A DNA stretch of 64,000 bases, from contig MFBZ01000016.1 in NCBI GenBank assembly GCA_001776545.1, positions 1,088 to 65,087 on the forward strand. Direction: 5' to 3'. This document shows, piece by piece, positions 6,068-63,982 of the stretch. This DNA is from Candidatus Curtissbacteria bacterium RIFCSPLOWO2_12_FULL_41_16. Its GTDB lineage: Bacteria; Patescibacteriota; Microgenomatia; Curtissbacterales; GWA2-41-24. The translations under genes and the position numbers were made by a program. Position 1 is the stretch's first letter, and each line of letters opens with the position of its first letter. Below the pieces are notes generated by a model that was given only the letters and a program-made list of their open reading frames with translations, did no database searches and was not told the origin of the DNA.

Positions 6068-6089
6068 TTATTTCACCTCCTTTTATGCC

Positions 6090-6133
6090 CTAAGGGGACA
6101 CCTAAGGTTCCTTCTTAGTATTCCCCTTCCTTT
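6090..6133 (-). promoter_or_regulatory. repeated ~44-nt leader element, copy upstream of rpoA
   Basis: On the transcript, AAAGGAAGGGGAAUACUAAGAAGGAACCUUAGGUGUCCCCUUAG. 20/20 identity plus flanking similarity with the copy at 6768-6809. Confidence 0.5.
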
Positions 6134-6151
6134 AAAAATTTTCTTCACGAT

Positions 6152-6760: not shown

Positions 6761-6767
6761 GACACTC

Positions 6768-6809
6768 TAAGGGGCAACCAAGATTTCCCCTTAGTATTCC
6801 CCTTCCTTT
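6768..6809 (-). promoter_or_regulatory. repeated ~44-nt leader element, copy upstream of rpsD
   Basis: On the transcript, AAAGGAAGGGGAAUACUAAGGGGAAAUCUUGGUUGCCCCUUAG. Same 20-mer as at 6114-6133. Confidence 0.5.
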
Positions 6810-6838
6810 CATTGGAAATTTGAAATTGGTAATTCTCA

Positions 6839-7246: not shown

Positions 7247-7665
7247 TTATTCTCGGCCACTTTGGTTATTTCTTTCGTCTTTTCAACCCTTCCTGCAGCT
7301 TCTTTTCTGACTGTACCTATGGTTATTCTTTTACCTCTTTTGGTCCTAGCATTCGTCCTTGTCCTTTGGCCACGTACCGGTAAATTCCTGGTATGACGAA
7401 TACCCCGATATGAACTTATCTCTTGAAGTCTTTTAAGATTTTCTTGAATCTCGCGCCTAAGGTCTCCTTCTACTTTGTACTCTTCTACCTTGCGCTGAAG
7501 TCTATTTATTTGCTCTTCCGTAAGATTTTTTGTCCTAGTGTTTGGGTCTATTTGACAATCAGCAATGATTTTTTTGGACAAAGTTAATCCAATCCCAAAA
7601 ATGTAGGGTAGAGCTGCTTCAATTCTTTTTTCGTTTGGCAGATCGACTCCAGCAATTCTAGCCAT
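7243..7665 (-). CDS. rpsM: 30S ribosomal protein S13
   Basis: [11 protein letters not shown]....AL..I.GIG N-terminus. Arg-rich C-terminal tail. Confidence 0.95.
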
Positions 7666-7683
7666 AATATCCTAATTTATCCT
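7666..7683 (-). promoter_or_regulatory. 18-nt element AUUAGGAUAAAUUAGGAU abutting the rpsM start codon
   Basis: Identical 18-mer found abutting the rplC start (20238-20255). It contains tandem AGGA (SD-like) at 10-nt spacing. Confidence 0.5.
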
Positions 7684-7795
7684 AATAAGATTAGTCCGAA
7701 TTTATCCGAATGCTCCCAGTTGATTTCAATTGCTAATTTTGAGAATTGACTATTCGGATTCATTCGGATTATTTTGATTAAGACACATTGGTATT

Positions 7796-7909
7796 TCATC
7801 CCTGTCTTTGCTTATGGCGAGGGTTAGTACAAATCACATAAAGCCGACTTTTACGTTTGACGATTCTACAATTAACGCATCTTTTTTTAACGCTTGCTTG
7901 AACCTTCAT
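7796..7909 (-). CDS. rpmJ: 50S ribosomal protein L36
   Basis: Not in the ORF track (37 aa). Hand translation of the minus strand gives [37 protein letters not shown], the classic L36 Zn ribbon, at the position where L36 normally lies between infA and rpsM. Confidence 0.85.
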
Positions 7910-15685: not shown

Positions 15686-15880
15686 AACTTTCCCTTTCCC
15701 TTAATAAACTACTCACGGCCGATTCGGTCTGAGCCTCACGGTCGAAGACCTGAAGGCCATAGTTCTCGCTCGCGTGGAATAGACAATAGACAAAATTGTC
15801 CAAGCTAAGCTTGTTACAATTTTGGGATTTGTTTTTTTTGAATTTTGATTTGTCATTTTGATGTTTGATTTTTGATTTTG

Positions 15881-18244: not shown

Positions 18245-18619
18245 TTATCCTTCCTTCCCTTCTGCTGATGTTGTTTGGATATCCTTTTCCTTTGGCGATG
18301 GGTGTCTTTTTTTCGACTTTTCACTTTCTTTTTTTGGTGAAATCATGGCAATAGATTGACCCGCCTTCAGCCAAACAATAGCCTTTTTGCCGCCACCAGT
18401 TTTTGTCTCTTTTCTCGTCCTGGCAATTCTTTTGGTTTTAAAAGCACGTGTGGCAACGTTGACTTTTTGAACTTCTACAGAAAATTGTTTTTCAACTTGT
18501 TTCTCAATTTGATCTTTTGTGGATCGCGCATCGACTAAAAAAGTGTAGATGCTTTTTTCCATTTGCTTGTAAGCTTTCTCGGAAAGAATTGCTTTTTTAA
18601 TAACGTCGGTGGTTTTCAT
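18245..18619 (-). CDS. rplW: 50S ribosomal protein L23 with C-terminal Lys/Glu-rich extension
   Basis: L23 core (YTFLVDARSTKDQIEKQVEKQFSV.V.KVN) plus about 40 aa tail. Confidence 0.9.
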   Translation of the reverse strand: MKTTDVIKKAILSEKAYKQMEKSIYTFLVDARSTKDQIEKQVEKQFSVEVQKVNVATRAFKTKRIARTRKETKTGGGKKAIVWLKAGQSIAMISPKKESEKSKKRHPSPKEKDIQTTSAEGKEG

Positions 18620-19413
18620 TTTATTTGAAAAGAACTTACCGCCTCTTTTGAAATCAACAATTGATTGTTTTTCAGAACGATGTTTGCATTTAGGTTTTGA
18701 GCGGTTTCAACTGAAACTTGCGAAATGTTACGAGAGGCTAGTTTTACATTTTTTCCGCCAGCCGGCGGATTGGCAGATAGAACTAAAAGCGTGTCGCCTT
18801 TTGCCCGGAGTTTTAAAAGAAGATTGGCAATAATTTTTGTTTTTGGTTCTATTTTTTCGATATTTTGGATAACTTTGATATGACCGGATTTAAATTTGAG
18901 AGAGAGCGAGTGGATTAGAGCTTTGTGTTTCATTTTCTTAGGTAAAGAGAGTTTCACTTCCCGATAGTGCGGCCCAAAGGCCTTTCCCCCGCCAACCCAA
19001 AGCGGTGAACGAATCGATCCGGCTCTGGCCCGACCTGTGCCTTTTTGACGATGCGGTTTTCTTCCACCGCCGCGGACTTCGCTTCGTGTTTTGGTATTAG
19101 CAAAATGTCCAGACTGGTTGGCAAAATAGACCCTGACCGCTTGGGCCAGAAGATTTTGATTGGGAGTTTGGCCAAAAATTTCCTTTGGTAAATTGATTGT
19201 TCCCTGTACTCTGCCTTGAGTATCAAATACTTGAGCTGCCAGTTTTGGTATGGCAAGTTTCTTTTGACTCTTTCGGGGTGAGCTTTCAACTTTCAGACGT
19301 GTTTTGAAAACTCCTTGTCTGGCCTTTTCCGGAGCAATTTTTTTAGGGTCGGCCTTTACGGTTTTTACCTTGATAACTTTTGCTTGTTTTGTGACTTTTG
19401 TTTTTTGCTTCAT
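18616..19413 (-). CDS. rplD: 50S ribosomal protein L4 with N-terminal Lys-rich extension
   Basis: L4 core (GGGRKPHRQKGTGRARAGSIRSPLWVGGG). About 55 extra N-terminal residues if the ATG at 19413 is used. Confidence 0.9.
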   Translation of the reverse strand: MKQKTKVTKQAKVIKVKTVKADPKKIAPEKARQGVFKTRLKVESSPRKSQKKLAIPKLAAQVFDTQGRVQGTINLPKEIFGQTPNQNLLAQAVRVYFANQSGHFANTKTRSEVRGGGRKPHRQKGTGRARAGSIRSPLWVGGGKAFGPHYREVKLSLPKKMKHKALIHSLSLKFKSGHIKVIQNIEKIEPKTKIIANLLLKLRAKGDTLLVLSANPPAGGKNVKLASRNISQVSVETAQNLNANIVLKNNQLLISKEAVSSFQIK

Positions 19414-19442: not shown

Positions 19443-20237
19443 TTATGGCAAATCGGATTGGCCTGATTGCGGTTTCTTCTCTTCTTCCAGTTTCTGGTTG
19501 TCGCCCTTGGCTTGGGCCGCACCAGAATCGGTGCGGGGTGAAGTTGCAGGTTTTTCCTTCGGCTCTTCCTCCTCTTTTGGTGGTGGTTTATAGCCCTTAA
19601 CTTTGCCGGTTTTTTCGATTATTAAAAATCCGTTTTTGACACCCGGCACCGAACCTTTAACGATAAGTTGACTTGCGGCGCTATCAACTTCAATAACCTC
19701 AAGACCTGTAATTGTTAATTTGGCGTGACCCATGTGCCCGGCCATTTTTTTACCTTTATAAACACGGCCTGGTGTTGTAGTCTGGCCAATGGAACCCGGT
19801 GCCCTGTGACGATCACTTTGTCCGTGAGTTTTAGGTCCGCCAGCAAAACCCCATCTTTTGACTGTCCCTGCGAATCCCTTACCGCGAGTGATACCGCAAA
19901 CTTTAACTTGATCACCCGGCTCAAAAATAGAAAGGGTGATTTTGTCGCCAGTTTTGACCACGTCTGACGTGGTTTTGATCTTTTCCGAACCGGTAATCTC
20001 TGCTTGAGCAATTTTGATCTCTCTTTTATACTTTGGGGCAAAGCCCAATGCTGAAATAAAGGCATTCTCAGTTTTTTTGGCCTTCTTTTTTTGACCCAGG
20101 CCAAGCATTATTTGCCCATCTTTTTTTAAAATCACGACATTCGGATCGACCTGGACTACGGTGACGGGTAATCGACGACCAAGTTGATCAAAACGAACAG
20201 ACATTTCCTTTTTAATACCGAGTATTGTAGTTACCAT
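19443..20237 (-). CDS. rplC: 50S ribosomal protein L3 with acidic/Pro-rich C-terminal extension
   Basis: L3 core (GITRGKGFAG..KRWGF.GGP.THGQSDRHRAPGSIG). Confidence 0.95.
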   Translation of the reverse strand: MVTTILGIKKEMSVRFDQLGRRLPVTVVQVDPNVVILKKDGQIMLGLGQKKKAKKTENAFISALGFAPKYKREIKIAQAEITGSEKIKTTSDVVKTGDKITLSIFEPGDQVKVCGITRGKGFAGTVKRWGFAGGPKTHGQSDRHRAPGSIGQTTTPGRVYKGKKMAGHMGHAKLTITGLEVIEVDSAASQLIVKGSVPGVKNGFLIIEKTGKVKGYKPPPKEEEEPKEKPATSPRTDSGAAQAKGDNQKLEEEKKPQSGQSDLP

Positions 20238-20255
20238 CCTAATTTATCCTAATTT
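20238..20255 (-). promoter_or_regulatory. 18-nt element AUUAGGAUAAAUUAGGAU abutting the rplC start codon
   Basis: Identical to the element before rpsM. Confidence 0.5.
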
Positions 20256-20284
20256 TTACCAAAAAGGCAGGACTCCTTAAATTC

Positions 20285-20313
20285 TCCCCAATCGAGTCAG
20301 GCTCGATTGGGGA
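20285..20313 (-). promoter_or_regulatory. 11-bp perfect GC-rich hairpin in the rpsJ-rplC spacer (no U-tract)
   Basis: tccccaatcga-gtcaggc-tcgattgggga. Confidence 0.45.
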
Positions 20314-20502
20314 CCCCGATAAGAAAAATCTCCTATGGAGCTTTCAGGTGTCCTACCGATTAACAAATCGTCAATTGTTGAGCGTTAATTGTTAATGGTT
20401 ATTTTTATTTAATTTTAGCAAGTACCTCCAAATTTTCTGTAATTCTAATCTATCCGAATATAATTAATCCTAATGAATCCGAATATTAGGATAAATTCGC
20501 AT

Positions 20503-20811
20503 TTACATCTTAATTTCGATATCTACCCCCGCGGGAAGATCAAGATGCGTTAGGGAATCAATTGTTTTATTCGTCGGCTCGATAATATCAATAAGCCTCT
20601 TGTGAATGCGCATTTCAAACTGTTCTCTGGCGTCTTTATCGGTATGCGGACTGGTAAGAACAATGAATTTCTCAAACTTTGTCGGCAAAGGAATCGGGCC
20701 GGAAATTTTAGCACCGGTTGACAGTGCCGTGTTGATAATGTCCTTACAGGCCGCATCCATAACCCGTGCGTCGTATGCTTTAAGTTTGACTCGAATTCTA
20801 CCTTTTGGCAT
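20503..20811 (-). CDS. rpsJ: 30S ribosomal protein S10
   Basis: IRVKLKAYD...LD....I...A...[11 protein letters not shown] ... [20 protein letters not shown]. Confidence 0.95.
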
Positions 20812-25634: not shown

Positions 25635-25694
25635 AGCAACGCTCCCTTCGGTCGCAAGTGATAAGTGATAAGTTTTGGAAATTCGACATTTTAA

Positions 25695-26174: not shown

Positions 26175-26229
26175 AAAATTACCTCAAGTTTCAAGTTTAA
26201 ATTGTAAAGATAAAAATTACAATCTTTGA

Positions 26230-26257
26230 ATTATAGCAAAATCGGGGTAGATTGCAA
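26230..26257 (-). promoter_or_regulatory. sigma70-like promoter for rpsL-rpsG(-fusA-tuf)
   Basis: On the minus strand, TTGCAA-16 nt-TATAAT lies about 55 nt upstream of the rpsL ATG. Confidence 0.5.
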
Positions 26258-26288
26258 GCTAGGTAGGAGTTATTGGGTATCAATTCTT

Positions 26289-35683: not shown

Positions 35684-35731
35684 TGTTTAATTGCTAAATT
35701 GTTAAATTGTTTAGAGGAAATTGTCAAATGA

Positions 35732-59953: not shown

Positions 59954-59961
59954 TCTACTTG

Positions 59962-59983
59962 GAGAAAAGCTAAAGCTTTTCTC
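59962..59983 (-). promoter_or_regulatory. perfect 9-bp hairpin 9 nt upstream of the nusA start codon
   Basis: gagaaaagc-taaa-gcttttctc occupies the position of the ribosome-binding site. Confidence 0.4.
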
Positions 59984-60057
59984 GATATTCCTCTTTCCCT
60001 GCTAGATTTAAATTTAATTTTTAACTAATTATTTTCTTTGTAGTTTTTGCGATATTC

Positions 60058-60078
60058 AAAAAAAGGCGCATGCGCGCC
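60058..60078 (-). terminator. rho-independent terminator downstream of dnaJ
   Basis: On the minus transcript, GGCGC-GCAU-GCGCC then U7. Lies 70 nt after the dnaJ stop. Confidence 0.6.
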
Positions 60079-60148
60079 TTAGACTCTTGCCGAACTAAAA
60101 TGCAAAAGAATTTTAGCAAAATAGGATACTTTCAGTCAACTTCCGTGA

Positions 60149-61015: not shown

Positions 61016-61096
61016 ATATAAAATTAATTTCTAATTTCCAATAACCAATTTCTAATGTTTAATCTTAAAACATTTTGTCATTGGGGTTTGATTAGG

Positions 61097-61530: not shown

Positions 61531-63447
61531 TTATTCCTTCACCACTTCGCCTTCCTGGACATCGCCTGTGTCTGATTTAGCATCTTGAGTTTGCCCGTCG
61601 GTCTGACCTTTTTCGTCCATAGGACGATCAGCCCCTGGCTGAGACTCTGTCCTTTGACCCTTATACATGGACTCGCCTATTTTGGAGAGGACGCCAGAGA
61701 GTTCTTCGGTTTTTGTCTTGACCTCATCGAGTGGGCCGGCTGCCTGAATTTCTTTGAGAGCTTTAATCTTTTCTTCGACTTCGGTTTTGACTTCAGTCGG
61801 AACTTTGTCGCCGGCATCTTTGAGGGCTTTCTCGGCTTGGTAAACAAGGGCATCGGCTTTATTTCTGGTTTCGATTTCTTCCTTTTTGGCCTCATCTTCT
61901 TTGGCGTGCTCCTCGGCTTCTTTGGTCATCCTTTCGATTTCTTCGCTGGTCAATCCAGTACTACCTGTAATTTTGATGGACTGTTCTTTGCCTGTTGCCT
62001 TGTCGCGCGCCTTAACGTTTAAAATACCATTGGCGTCAAGATCGAAAGCGACCTCGATTTGGGGAATACCACGGGGGGCTGGAGGAATACCATCGAGAAT
62101 AAAACGGCCGAGAGATTTGTTGTCTTGCGCCATGGGTCTTTCGCCCTGCAAAACATTAATTTCGACTGATGTTTGGTTGTCGGAAGCAGTTGAGAAGATT
62201 TCTGATTTTGACGTGGGGATTGTGGTGTTTCTTTGGATAAGAGCAGTGGAGACACCACCTAAGGTTTCAATACCCAGTGTTAATGGAGTAACATCAAGAA
62301 GGACCATTTCCTTCATTTCGCCACCCAGAACAGCGCCTTGAACGGCAGCGCCGACGGCAACGACTTCGTCCGGGTTAATTCCTTTGTGGGGTTCTTTACC
62401 GAAGAATTCTTGGACTTTGGTATTTACAAGGGGCATTCTGGTCATGCCGCCAACAAGGATAACTTCGTCAACTTTAGCCGCGTCCATCTTGGCATCTTTA
62501 AGACAGGCTTTAACCGGTCCGAAAGTCTTTTCGACGAGATCGCCGACGATTGATTCAAGCTTGGCGCGCGAAAGTTTGAGTTGCAGATGTTTGGGGCCGG
62601 TTTGGTCGGCAGTTAGATAGGGAATGGAAATTTCTGATTCGGTGGTAGTGGAAAGCTCAATTTTAGCTTTTTCGGCTGCGTCCCGAAGCCTTTGGAGTGC
62701 GGGTCTATCTTTGGTGATATCGATACCTGATTCCTTTTTAAATTCTTCAACCAAATATTCGACAATTTTGGAATCAAAATCGTCACCGCCAAGATGGGTA
62801 TCGCCGTTGGTAGCTTTAACTTCAAAAACACCTTCGCCAAGTTCCAAAATAGAAATATCAAAAGTACCACCACCAAGGTCGTATACGGCAATAGTGTGGG
62901 CGTGGGATTTATCAAGGCCGTAGGCTAAAGCGGCGGCGGTCGGCTCATTGATAATACGCTCAACTTTAAGCCCGGCAATTTCTCCAGCTTGCTTTGTTGC
63001 TTGACGTTGAGAATCATCGAAATAGGCAGGAACCGTAATAACGGCTTTTTCAACTTTACCGCCAAGATAGCTTTCGGCATCGGCTTTAAGTTTTTGTAAG
63101 ATCATTGCGGAAATTTCCTGAGGAGTATAATCTTTGTTTTCAACATTAATGACAGCCATGACATCGCGGCCTTCTTTAATATCATAGGGGAGCCACTTGA
63201 TATCTCTTTGAACTTCCGGATCTTTGTATTTGCGACCCATTAACCGTTTGATGGAAAAAATGGTGGTTTTGGGATTAACAATCATTTGGCGTTTGGCGAC
63301 ATCGCCAACGATGTGTTTTGAGACGTCAACTACCGACGGGATAATATTTCTGCCTTCTGCAGAGTGAATCACCTTGGGCTTGCCAGCCTCGATGACGGCA
63401 ACTACGGAATTTGTTGTTCCTAGATCGATACCGATGATTTTTGACAT
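61531..63447 (-). CDS. dnaK: molecular chaperone DnaK (Hsp70)
   Basis: [18 protein letters not shown], and a lid with a C-terminal charged tail. 638 aa. Confidence 0.95.
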
Positions 63448-63487
63448 GTTGCGTTTCTTTCAGTCACTTAATGTGAATGCATCCGAA

Positions 63488-63982
63488 TTAGGATTCATTC
63501 GAAGTGTTTTCATTGGGATACATTCTTGATTCTACTTGCTGACCAACCTTCTTTCTCTCAACCACTACTTGCGTGGGCCTAATAACCTTATTATTTATTT
63601 TATAACCTTTTTGCGTAACCTTAACAACCCTTCCTTCGCCAGAACCTTCGACAACATCGGTGGCTTCATGGAAATTTGGATCAAACCTAGCACCCTCTGC
63701 CTGGATTTCCTCTACACCTTCTGCTTTCAAAATCTCTTTGAACTGTTTAATAACAATTTCCAAACCCTGATCATTTAAATGTTTTTGGGCGTTTTCTAAA
63801 TTATCCAAAACCGGCAAAAGCTTTTCTACCAAGATTGCCGACGAGAGTTGACCTAAAAGTTTTCTTTCTTCCTCAACACGCCTTTCTAAATTTCGGTAAT
63901 CCGCCAGAGCACGTTTAAGCTGATCCTCCAAGTGTTTGAGCTGTTCTTCTAGGTAATTATTTTTTGCAACCACTGATTTCAT
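63488..63982 (-). CDS. grpE: nucleotide exchange factor GrpE (N-terminus may extend beyond the window)
   Basis: LKRALADYRNLERR coiled coil and a C-terminal beta domain. The frame stays open up to the window edge. Confidence 0.85.
   Translation of the reverse strand: MKSVVAKNNYLEEQLKHLEDQLKRALADYRNLERRVEEERKLLGQLSSAILVEKLLPVLDNLENAQKHLNDQGLEIVIKQFKEILKAEGVEEIQAEGARFDPNFHEATDVVEGSGEGRVVKVTQKGYKINNKVIRPTQVVVERKKVGQQVESRMYPNENTSNES

Follow-up and report, generated by a model that had tools for sequence, protein, structure and literature searches.

A dispersed family of quasi-palindromic octamer arrays at gene junctions of Curtissbacteria and other CPR genomes

The stretch of DNA analysed here, referred to throughout as the window, comprises 64 kb from Candidatus Curtissbacteria bacterium RIFCSPLOWO2_12_FULL_41_16, a member of the candidate phyla radiation (CPR, or Patescibacteria), and contains the S10–spc–alpha ribosomal-protein cluster. 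Our subject is an 18-mer, ATCCTAATTTATCCTAAT, that lies close to the start codons of rpsM and rplC, together with the octamer arrays to which it belongs. Loci in other genomes are denoted L001, L002 and so on.

Octamer arrays in the ribosomal-protein cluster

The 18-mer occurs on the + strand of the window in exactly two copies, at 7669–7686 and 20236–20253. The genes near both copies lie on the − strand, and in the mRNA sense the repeat reads AUUAGGAUAAAUUAGGAU. Allowing up to three mismatches brings in four further sites, giving six in total, against a mean of 0.21 in dinucleotide shuffles, none of which reached six. A preliminary description of this DNA had reported that the 18 nt immediately preceding the two ATG codons are the same. 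The repeat is indeed exact, but it had been placed at 7666–7683 and 20238–20255, which is out by 3 nt and 2 nt, respectively, and because the register relative to the start codon differs, the 18 nt directly 5′ of the two AUG codons are not identical. At rpsM, whose start codon (CAT on the + strand) occupies 7663–7665, the 18-mer stops 3 nt short of the AUG, the RNA reading ...AUUAGGAUAAAUUAGGAU-AUU-AUG (AGGAU-AUU-AUG). At rplC (CAT at 20235–20237), it shares the AU of the AUG, and the RNA reads ...AUUAGGAUAAAUUAGG-AUG (AUUAGG-AUG). This rplC start is consistent with those of relatives, in which the protein begins M-I/V-N/T-T-I-L.

Counted on both strands, octamers matching ATCCKAAT number 21 in the window, against 5.42 ± 2.15 in shuffled sequences, where the maximum was 11. 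Thirteen of them fall in four intergenic clusters (7669–7769, 20236–20253, 20452–20492 and 63481–63494), and the earlier proposal of an octamer family at gene junctions, including those after rpsJ and before dnaK, is borne out; the other eight are scattered singles at background level. These singles, and the AT-rich composition of the genome (41% GC), are what might be cited for a chance or low-complexity artefact, or for an artefact of assembly, but we give such an explanation practically no weight. Chance is excluded by the shuffle controls, so that the octamer frequency is not that of the AT-rich background; the rpmJ–rpsM sequence of the window is identical in an independent European Nucleotide Archive (ENA) assembly (L241); and the same architecture recurs in 89 stretches of metagenomic DNA.

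The arrays are inverted and predicted to fold as long hairpins, in keeping with the palindromic relationship noted at the outset; those of the window are predicted to reach from stop codon to start codon. The features are collected in Table 1. The only complete copy separates rpmJ (7796–7909) from rpsM. Read in mRNA order, it consists of an outer segment, ATCCGAAT-GA-ATCCGAAT, a 40-nt loop, ATTCGGAT-AA-ATTCGGAC and ATTAGGAT-AA-ATTAGGAT, followed by AUU and the AUG. It is predicted to form a single long hairpin (−32.2 kcal/mol, z = −2.98) that begins immediately 3′ of the stop codon and closes 3 nt short of the AUG. The 18-mer at its 3′ end contributes two AGGA cores resembling Shine–Dalgarno sequences, 4 nt and 14 nt 5′ of the rpsM AUG, and the outer segment is predicted to pair with both of these units.

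Table 1. Coordinates of the octamer elements and of an adjacent hairpin in the window
Feature	Position	Strand	Remarks
Complete element copy	7666..7795	−	130 nt; whole rpmJ–rpsM spacer, from after the rpmJ stop (7796–7798) to before the rpsM start (7663–7665)
18-mer, copy 1	7669..7686	−	3′-terminal double unit AUUAGGAU-AA-AUUAGGAU; exact match; predicted pairing with 7770–7795
Inner hairpin, 3′ arm	7694..7711	−	mRNA sense AUUCGGAU-AA-AUUCGGAC; from sequence and predicted fold
Loop	7712..7751	−	40 nt; not kept in other family copies
Inner hairpin, 5′ arm	7752..7769	−	mRNA sense AUCCGAAU-GA-AUCCGAAU; complements 7694–7711 at 15/17 positions
Outer 5′ segment	7770..7795	−	Just after the rpmJ stop; mRNA sense AAUACCAAUGUGUCUUAAUCAAAAUA; from minimum-energy and centroid structures
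18-mer, copy 2	20236..20253	−	Right-arm remnant of an element 5′ of rplC; ends in the AU of the rplC AUG
Terminator-like hairpin with U-run	20258..20360	−	Conserved; not in the repeat family; between the two octamer clusters and enclosed by the 13-nt inverted repeat
Octamer hairpin cluster	20442..20502	−	Directly 3′ of the rpsJ stop (20503–20505); from sequence and octamer counts
Inverted-repeat partner	20485..20497	−	13 nt, perfect; pairs with 20241–20253; mRNA 5′ AAUUUAUCCUAAU ... AUUAGGAUAAAUU 3′
Mini-palindrome	63475..63500	−	GAAUGAAUCCUAAUUCGGAUGCAUUC in mRNA sense; overlaps the stop (63488–63490) of the upstream open reading frame (provisionally grpE)

Complete hairpins lie upstream of rplC in L005 (698–781) and L007 (1033–1127), and we therefore take the 18-mer before rplC in the window to be the right arm of a decayed copy. 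The cluster that follows rpsJ, with the units ATTCTAAT, ATCCGAAT, ATCCTAAT, ATCCGAAT, ATTAGGAT and ATTCGCAT on the + strand, has an orthologous counterpart in L005 (486–561) made up of 4+4 units. A 13-nt inverted repeat brackets the entire 265-nt rpsJ–rplC spacer and links this cluster to the rplC 18-mer, the long-range pairing appearing in the minimum-energy and centroid folds alike (z = −5.53). The mini-palindrome, 28 nt 5′ of the dnaK AUG (63445–63447), has a weak predicted fold (−11.6 kcal/mol, z = −1.2); at the related locus L219 a full element is situated 5′ of grpE. In all, the window holds one complete copy between rpmJ and rpsM, a hairpin after rpsJ with a decayed right arm before rplC, and a mini-copy before dnaK.

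Distribution and turnover of the family

The window SecY retrieves 27 loci from Candidatus Curtissbacteria genomes (CPR, Microgenomates) at 73–82% identity. The octamers form quasi-palindromic elements of about 60–130 nt with a recurrent architecture: in the mRNA sense, a 5′ arm of 2–5 ATCCGAAT-type octamers spaced some 8–13 nt apart, a variable loop and a complementary 3′ arm, whose units are ATTCGGAT/ATTCGTAG, often with a terminal ATTAGGAT. A single metagenome scan with the pattern ATCCGAATNNATCCGAATN{20,50}TTMGGAT yielded the 89 further stretches, among them a Komeilibacteria-like (Parcubacteria) contig. Together with the window and the Curtissbacteria loci, these stretches contain 123 unit clusters, with two or three in several loci, and the density is about one element per 15–20 kb in the DNA examined (window plus locus flanks).

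Modular elements are found at map–infA in L001, where they end ATTCGGATatATTAGAAT/ATG, and at rpsC–rplP in L007 and L012, where they end ATTAGG/ATG. It had been asked whether the 18-mer is confined to this strain; the exact sequence is window-specific, but doubled TTAGGA units 5′ of a start codon recur in relatives, namely L005, L007 and L172/L191/L193. The 10-nt period first noticed in the window is likewise sound there but is looser across the wider family, in which spacings of 8 nt (39 cases), 9 nt (62), 10 nt (162, about 90 of them forced by the search pattern), 11 nt (37), 12 nt (19) and 13 nt (14) occur, the mode of 10 nt being inflated by that pattern. The termini define genome-specific subfamilies, for example GTACGAAT...ATTCGTAC or GCGATCC...GGATCGC, and ATCCTAAT...ATTAGGAT is a frequent outermost unit pair, to which TATA or GCG is added. 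L172 encodes a SecY only 45% identical to that of the window, and the best named relative of the L200 UvrA, at 83% identity, belongs to Candidatus Komeilibacteria of the Parcubacteria lineage; the family therefore crosses CPR superphyla.

A run of four heptamer-like AAATCCG(A) units (aaatccgaaatccgaaatccgaaatccgaaacc) was also seen in L167 (840–868) and L212 (5427–5455), inside an apparent gatA coding region (...KAEIRNPKSEIRNLKG...). If this run is in gatA, related units can sit in frame inside a gene.

Position and context were surveyed for 91 non-identical elements, which almost invariably fill the short interval from one stop codon to the next start codon. Forty-six lie between co-directional genes; in these, the stop codon is generally no more than some 13 nt from the 5′ end, and the start codon generally no more than some 20 nt from the 3′ end. 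Another 25 are located just 5′ of a start codon. Convergent junctions account for two elements and divergent junctions for three, a scarcity that seems to fit a mostly co-directional gene order. An association with operon starts, which had been put forward as a check, was not found; the elements are at junctions inside operons instead. The genes downstream are functionally unrelated and include those for ribosomal proteins, tatD, uvrA, groES, pilin-like genes, secY and gapA, among others.

Both orientations occur. The ATTAGGAT/ATTCGTAG end points toward the start codon in 26 elements and away from it in 11 (p = 0.02), and the start-proximal arm carries 2–5 GGA motifs in either orientation. Mean minimum free energies over the family are −31.1 kcal/mol for the sense strand and −31.0 kcal/mol for the antisense strand (p = 0.94). 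With sense and antisense folding equally, and with no G-U signature, we rejected an RNA-specific structure and conclude that the palindrome is a feature of the DNA.

Indications of mobility come from comparing sites. Among 26 genomes, the octamer element between rpmJ and rpsM is present in the window only and in none of the 25 Curtissbacteria relatives. In 15 of the 25, the spacer is at most 12 nt long and the end of rpmJ (CAAGGATAA) provides an AAGGA before rpsM; the remainder hold other inserts. As for an exact empty site in closer relatives, the next-best RpsM is at most 85% identical, and the sole near-identical contig, L241, has the same element. The second case is uvrA, for which four Komeilibacteria-like genomes present the stretch from the −10 box to the ATG in four states: this 5′ untranslated region is empty in L240 (33 nt), L200 has a ATCCGAAT element in it, L239 an array hairpin of TACAGAT/ATCTGTA units, and L237 a palindrome rich in GC. 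L237 also provides a case of a nested element, 3′ of the uvrA stop codon. Moreover, an 85-nt element is 100% identical, loop included, in L155 and L202, whose flanks are unrelated. Two copies in L191 are 97% identical, and those of L188 and L173 are 94% identical, again between unrelated flanks; the same alignment applied to unrelated 100-mers gives 0.53. From identical copies between unrelated flanks we conclude that the element spreads by some copy-and-paste process. Elements can also persist at orthologous sites, as in L206/L223, in which the element is 99% identical and the flanks 87%.

Origin and possible role of the elements

Taken together, these data describe a dispersed palindromic family at gene junctions that spreads by copying. 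The interpretation that we favour, with a probability of roughly 0.6, is that each of the two 18-mers forms the start-proximal end of its own copy of an intergenic, quasi-palindromic element, one that is dispersed, is propagated by copy and paste and resembles repetitive extragenic palindromic (REP) sequences and miniature inverted-repeat transposable elements (MITEs). The family seems to be a relative, apparently not yet described, of small intergenic repeats already known, and not a dedicated regulator of two ribosomal genes. The earlier suggestion that the repeats might be remnants of a mobile element is thus broadly supported, by presence and absence at orthologous junctions and by the identical 85-nt copy between unrelated flanks.

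Tightly packed operons could accommodate such an insert if it forms a single long hairpin, since the stop codon before it and the start codon after it would then meet again at the hairpin base; translationally coupled genes would tolerate it because this proximity is restored. A ribosome terminating on the upstream gene would then unwind the 5′ arm and release the 3′ end, which in the commoner orientation is UUAGGAU, with an AGGA Shine–Dalgarno core, and could serve as a ribosome-binding site. At rpmJ–rpsM, the terminating ribosome would be expected to open the hairpin because the predicted structure spans the upstream stop codon and the downstream Shine–Dalgarno sequence and AUG. In this it resembles the hairpins that couple translation of rpmI and rplT in Escherichia coli and of coat and replicase in phage MS2, which likewise run from an upstream stop to a downstream Shine–Dalgarno sequence and AUG. 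Those structures are gene-specific and evolved in place, however, whereas the predicted hairpin here would arise incidentally from the insertion of a repeated palindrome. Stop–start proximity, opening of the 5′ arm and a Shine–Dalgarno role for the element end are all steps that we infer. The proposal that the element delivers a ready-made ribosome-binding site finds partial backing in the excess of copies with the AGGA-bearing end facing the start codon.

A number of observations weigh against this interpretation. With regard to ribosome binding, a Shine–Dalgarno core (AGGA, GGAG or GAGG within 18 nt upstream) precedes only 15 of 76 window genes (about 20%), compared with 8% of random positions, start calls being crude, and initiation led by such sequences therefore seems to be a minority mode in this genome. 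At rplC, the AGG nearest the start abuts the AUG and cannot act as a Shine–Dalgarno sequence, leaving only the distal AGGA, 9 nt upstream, as usable. With regard to mobility, no transposase, no RAYT (the Y1 transposase that accompanies REP sequences, its gene being flanked by them) and no autonomous parent turned up in the 64-kb window and flanks of up to 10 kb, no whole-genome search having been made. The element flanks (ATA/ATCC...GGAT/TATA) are TA-rich and themselves palindromic, so that a TA duplication is compatible with them but indistinguishable from an extension of the palindrome, and no target-site duplication emerged from the comparisons made, which yielded no exact empty allele in a close relative. 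Most copies differ in their loops, and the arms are of variable length, neither of which would be expected of a MITE family that is young. The collection of elements is biased by the search pattern, and gene calls are crude. Two further difficulties, the conservation of the octamer itself over very distant CPR lineages and an element that is 99% identical between the orthologous loci L007 and L012 although the coding flanks are only 83% identical, which suggests selection on the sequence or gene conversion more than a neutral parasite, lead directly to the principal rival.

That rival holds that the arrays are cis-regulatory sites of the host, bound by a conserved CPR protein that controls transcription, mRNA processing or translation of the gene downstream, either a DNA-binding factor on phased units or a CsrA-type RNA-binding protein acting at the GGA of AUUCGGAU/AUUAGGAU near the start codon. 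We think it unlikely. The unit is conserved from Curtissbacteria to Komeilibacteria-like genomes, and in L007/L012 the element is better conserved than its flanks. Over longer divergence, element and flanks are 59% and 70% identical between the window and L005, and 57% and 77% identical between L165 and L232; here the arrays have been rebuilt, yet the units persist at orthologous sites in flanks that are only 70–77% identical. The spacing mode of 10 nt and the 2–5 GGA motifs in the start-proximal arm, whatever the orientation, are also what a bound protein might require. csrA has been reported to be highly expressed in ultra-small groundwater prokaryotes (PMC9938205), which counts on the same side. 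Against a host factor, the neighbouring genes are functionally unrelated, most orthologues of the adjacent genes are without an element, both orientations occur, spacings spread over 8–13 nt, and the GGA motifs are base-paired in the predicted hairpin. A search for a CsrA homologue in 1.09 Mb of CPR DNA and among ten small open reading frames of the window found none, although this is a weak negative. CsrA sites would be expected to comprise at least two A(N)GGA motifs, preferably unpaired and with one of them over the Shine–Dalgarno sequence; GGA repeats do lie next to the start codon here but are predicted to be paired, and such sites seem unlikely. The helically phased protein-binding array originally envisaged has evidence on both sides. 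Conservation of the unit over distant CPR lineages speaks for it, but the variable spacing, where strict steps of about 10.5 bp would be expected, the inverted, hairpin-forming arrangement and the failure to find a candidate protein do not.

The anatomy of the elements bears on a further, non-mobile explanation, in which hairpin arrays are born in place by replication slippage and template switching in AT-rich spacers and are kept as useful or harmless, the ATCCGAAT family being one recurrent outcome. Other unit families with the same arm/loop/arm arrangement do occur at the same junctions (TTAGAAAT, CCAATTTC/GGAAATTGG, CAATTTAACAAT, TCAGAA and TACAGAT), unit number shifts between orthologous copies (window and L005; L165 and L232), and loops are unrelated between copies. 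Slippage does not readily account, however, for an 85-nt copy that is identical, with its loop, at unrelated loci, for the same octamer in lineages ranging from 0.34 to 0.52 in GC content and belonging to different CPR superphyla, for subfamily termini that are genome-specific, or for two 18-mers that are identical within the window while the orthologous L005 sequence differs. We consider this origin improbable, slightly more so than binding by a host factor.

Copying of a mobile element, the reading preferred above, invites comparison with known systems. The closest are REP sequences and the bacterial interspersed mosaic elements (BIMEs) built from them, and the MITEs resident in operons, such as Correia, RUP, BOX and ERIC; the family is not filed under either. 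Like REP/BIME sequences (and REPINs) of Enterobacteria and Pseudomonas, the CPR elements are short imperfect palindromes, extragenic and often between co-transcribed genes; copies are numerous and scattered, lie in either orientation and fall into genome-specific subfamilies, and their transcripts contain hairpins. They differ in being 60–130 nt composites of tandem 8-nt units, 2–5 per arm, where a REP measures some 20–40 nt, and in that the octamer unit is common to several CPR superphyla, REP sequences being species- or genus-specific. The GTAG (or CTAC) motif of REP sequences was sought and discarded, as xTACGAAT/ATTCGTAx units are present in only 33 of the 91 elements, and the window copies have none. 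Correia/NEMIS of Neisseria, RUP and BOX of Streptococcus pneumoniae, and ERIC/IRU are similar in having a length of about 100 nt, terminal inverted repeats and an intergenic location, and they share with the CPR elements polymorphic presence, nesting (as in L237) and a possible effect on expression of neighbouring genes; the TA-rich junctions of the CPR elements are compatible with a TA target. The CPR elements show terminal inverted repeats, a size within the 50–500 bp or so of MITEs, no coding capacity, variable occupancy of orthologous sites and copies that are identical although the sites are unrelated. They depart from MITEs in that most copies are without a conserved interior and in that the arms are arrays of short direct repeats, not a single terminal inverted repeat. 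A possible parallel is with transposons of the Tn7, Mu and Tn402/Tn552 classes, whose ends have several short direct transposase-binding repeats, inverted between the arms as in the CPR elements. Their binding sites are about 19–22 bp, unlike the 8-bp units here, and the CPR elements are without cargo or transposase. A gene bracketed by a ATCCGAAT array and a complementary array was not noticed in the lists of unit clusters, no dedicated search having been made.

DNA uptake sequences (DUS of Neisseria, USS of Haemophilus) are also short conserved words that occur as inverted repeats in intergenic DNA, often as inverted pairs 3′ of genes, and CPR bacteria are believed to rely on taking up DNA. 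This identity was rejected, since the octamers outside the four clusters number 8 against 5.4 expected, whereas DUS and USS are abundant genome-wide, including in coding DNA. Other candidates were dismissed in turn. Rfam gave no matches at the gathering score over the whole window and, with E values up to 10, only chance hairpin matches on both strands of the two spacers and of the rpsD and rpoA spacers. Consensus scans of both regions for promoters and intrinsic terminators gave nothing above shuffles, and ARAGORN found no tRNA or tmRNA in the window. The downstream genes are too diverse for an autoregulatory operator of ribosomal proteins, and the DnaA-box sequence TTATCC appears only in copies whose 2-nt spacer is by chance TT and, judged by eye, is not conserved in the family. 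A generic inverted-repeat scan of the window did not single out the octamer elements. A pilot scan of viral contigs with a degenerate pattern gave only single chance matches among the matches listed and is uninformative. No relevant description of REP, MITE or palindromic repeats in CPR bacteria, or of the octamer, was found in the searchable literature.

A more ambitious reading, which we regard as doubtful, would treat the ATCCGAAT arrays and the parallel unit families together as mobile intercistronic cassettes specific to the CPR, recognised by a conserved protein and kept for their hairpin and ribosome-binding site. The protein would be a putative new transposase or RAYT-like enzyme, or an RNA- or DNA-binding factor, and the role for which the cassettes are kept would be the setting of translational coupling or mRNA processing between genes.

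Neighbouring inserts and significance

Between the two octamer clusters of the rpsJ–rplC spacer is a terminator-like hairpin of a different kind, with the layout GGUAGGACACCUGAA...variable hairpin...UUAAGGAGUCCUGCCUUUUUGG. This spacer measures 86–381 nt in all Curtissbacteria relatives compared (L001–L027), and all of them have GGUGGGACACCUGAA[variable hairpin]AUCUAAGGAGUCCUGCCUUUUUGG just 5′ of rplC. An alignment of 15 sequences supports 11 base pairs, for two of which there are compensatory changes, and Rfam gave nothing that matches it. The hairpin may be a ribosomal-protein leader or an attenuator, and L3 or L4 might be what it responds to. The rplC product (19443–20237, − strand) is an L3 of 264 residues with a long, charged, low-complexity C-terminal tail (…PPPKEEEEPKEKPATSPRTDSGAAQAKGDNQKLEEEKKPQSGQSDLP), and similar L3 tails are seen in L005 and L007; rplD (18616–19413, − strand) encodes an L4 of 265 residues, extended at its N terminus by a lysine-rich segment.

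A second recurrent insert, of about 90–110 nt, comprises two hairpins (AAATTTGAATCTGGCTTTGCCAGTTCAAATTT ... GGGAAAGGGAATATTAAGGGGAAAACCGTTAGGTTGTCCCCTTAAAGT). On the − strand of the window it is found at 6761–6838 and 6068–6151 and, in partial form, at 15686–15880 and 59954–60148, and it ends 3–10 nt before a start codon. Counted across genomes (L001–L027), the ribosomal-operon junctions that carry it number at least 12 and differ from genome to genome; a permissive Rfam search produced no genuine match. The insert may represent either a structured leader that is mobile or a protein-binding site common to these genes. Short tandem units are also present 5′ of genes on the − strand, at 25635–25694, 26175–26288, 35684–35731, 61016–61096 and 15686–15880. 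They include ACTTATC twice before rpsG, AAACTTG twice before rpsL, and arrays of CAATTTAACAATTTAGCAATT, TTAGAAATTGG/GGAAATTAGAAATT and AATCAAAA. Arrays of this kind in relatives fold into hairpins of the same arm/loop/arm type, and a conserved CGACYGAARGGAG module often intervenes between them and the start codon. Further palindromes occur in the Komeilibacteria-like contigs L237 (2170–2512 and 5360–5625) and L239 (2170–2512). The GC-rich palindrome has the termini GTCATCTCGA...TCGAGATGAC (also GTCATCCCGAGCGG...) and in one instance is nested in the loop of a TTCCAAT/ATTGGAA array hairpin.

The genomes of CPR bacteria are about 1 Mb in size and are usually described as streamlined and repeat-poor. 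In the genomes compared here, even the ribosomal-protein operons hold several families of hairpin inserts at junctions that differ between genomes, and at least one of these families is common to the Microgenomates and Parcubacteria groups. Whichever interpretation holds, start codons, Shine–Dalgarno assignments and predictions of 'leader RNA' beside the elements can mislead annotation. If the elements are mobile, they would represent a so far undescribed class of small repeats within a major, largely uncultivated section of bacterial diversity, and they would provide markers for strain typing and for detecting assembly errors. If they are functional, they would point to a common way of handling translation or mRNA stability between genes.

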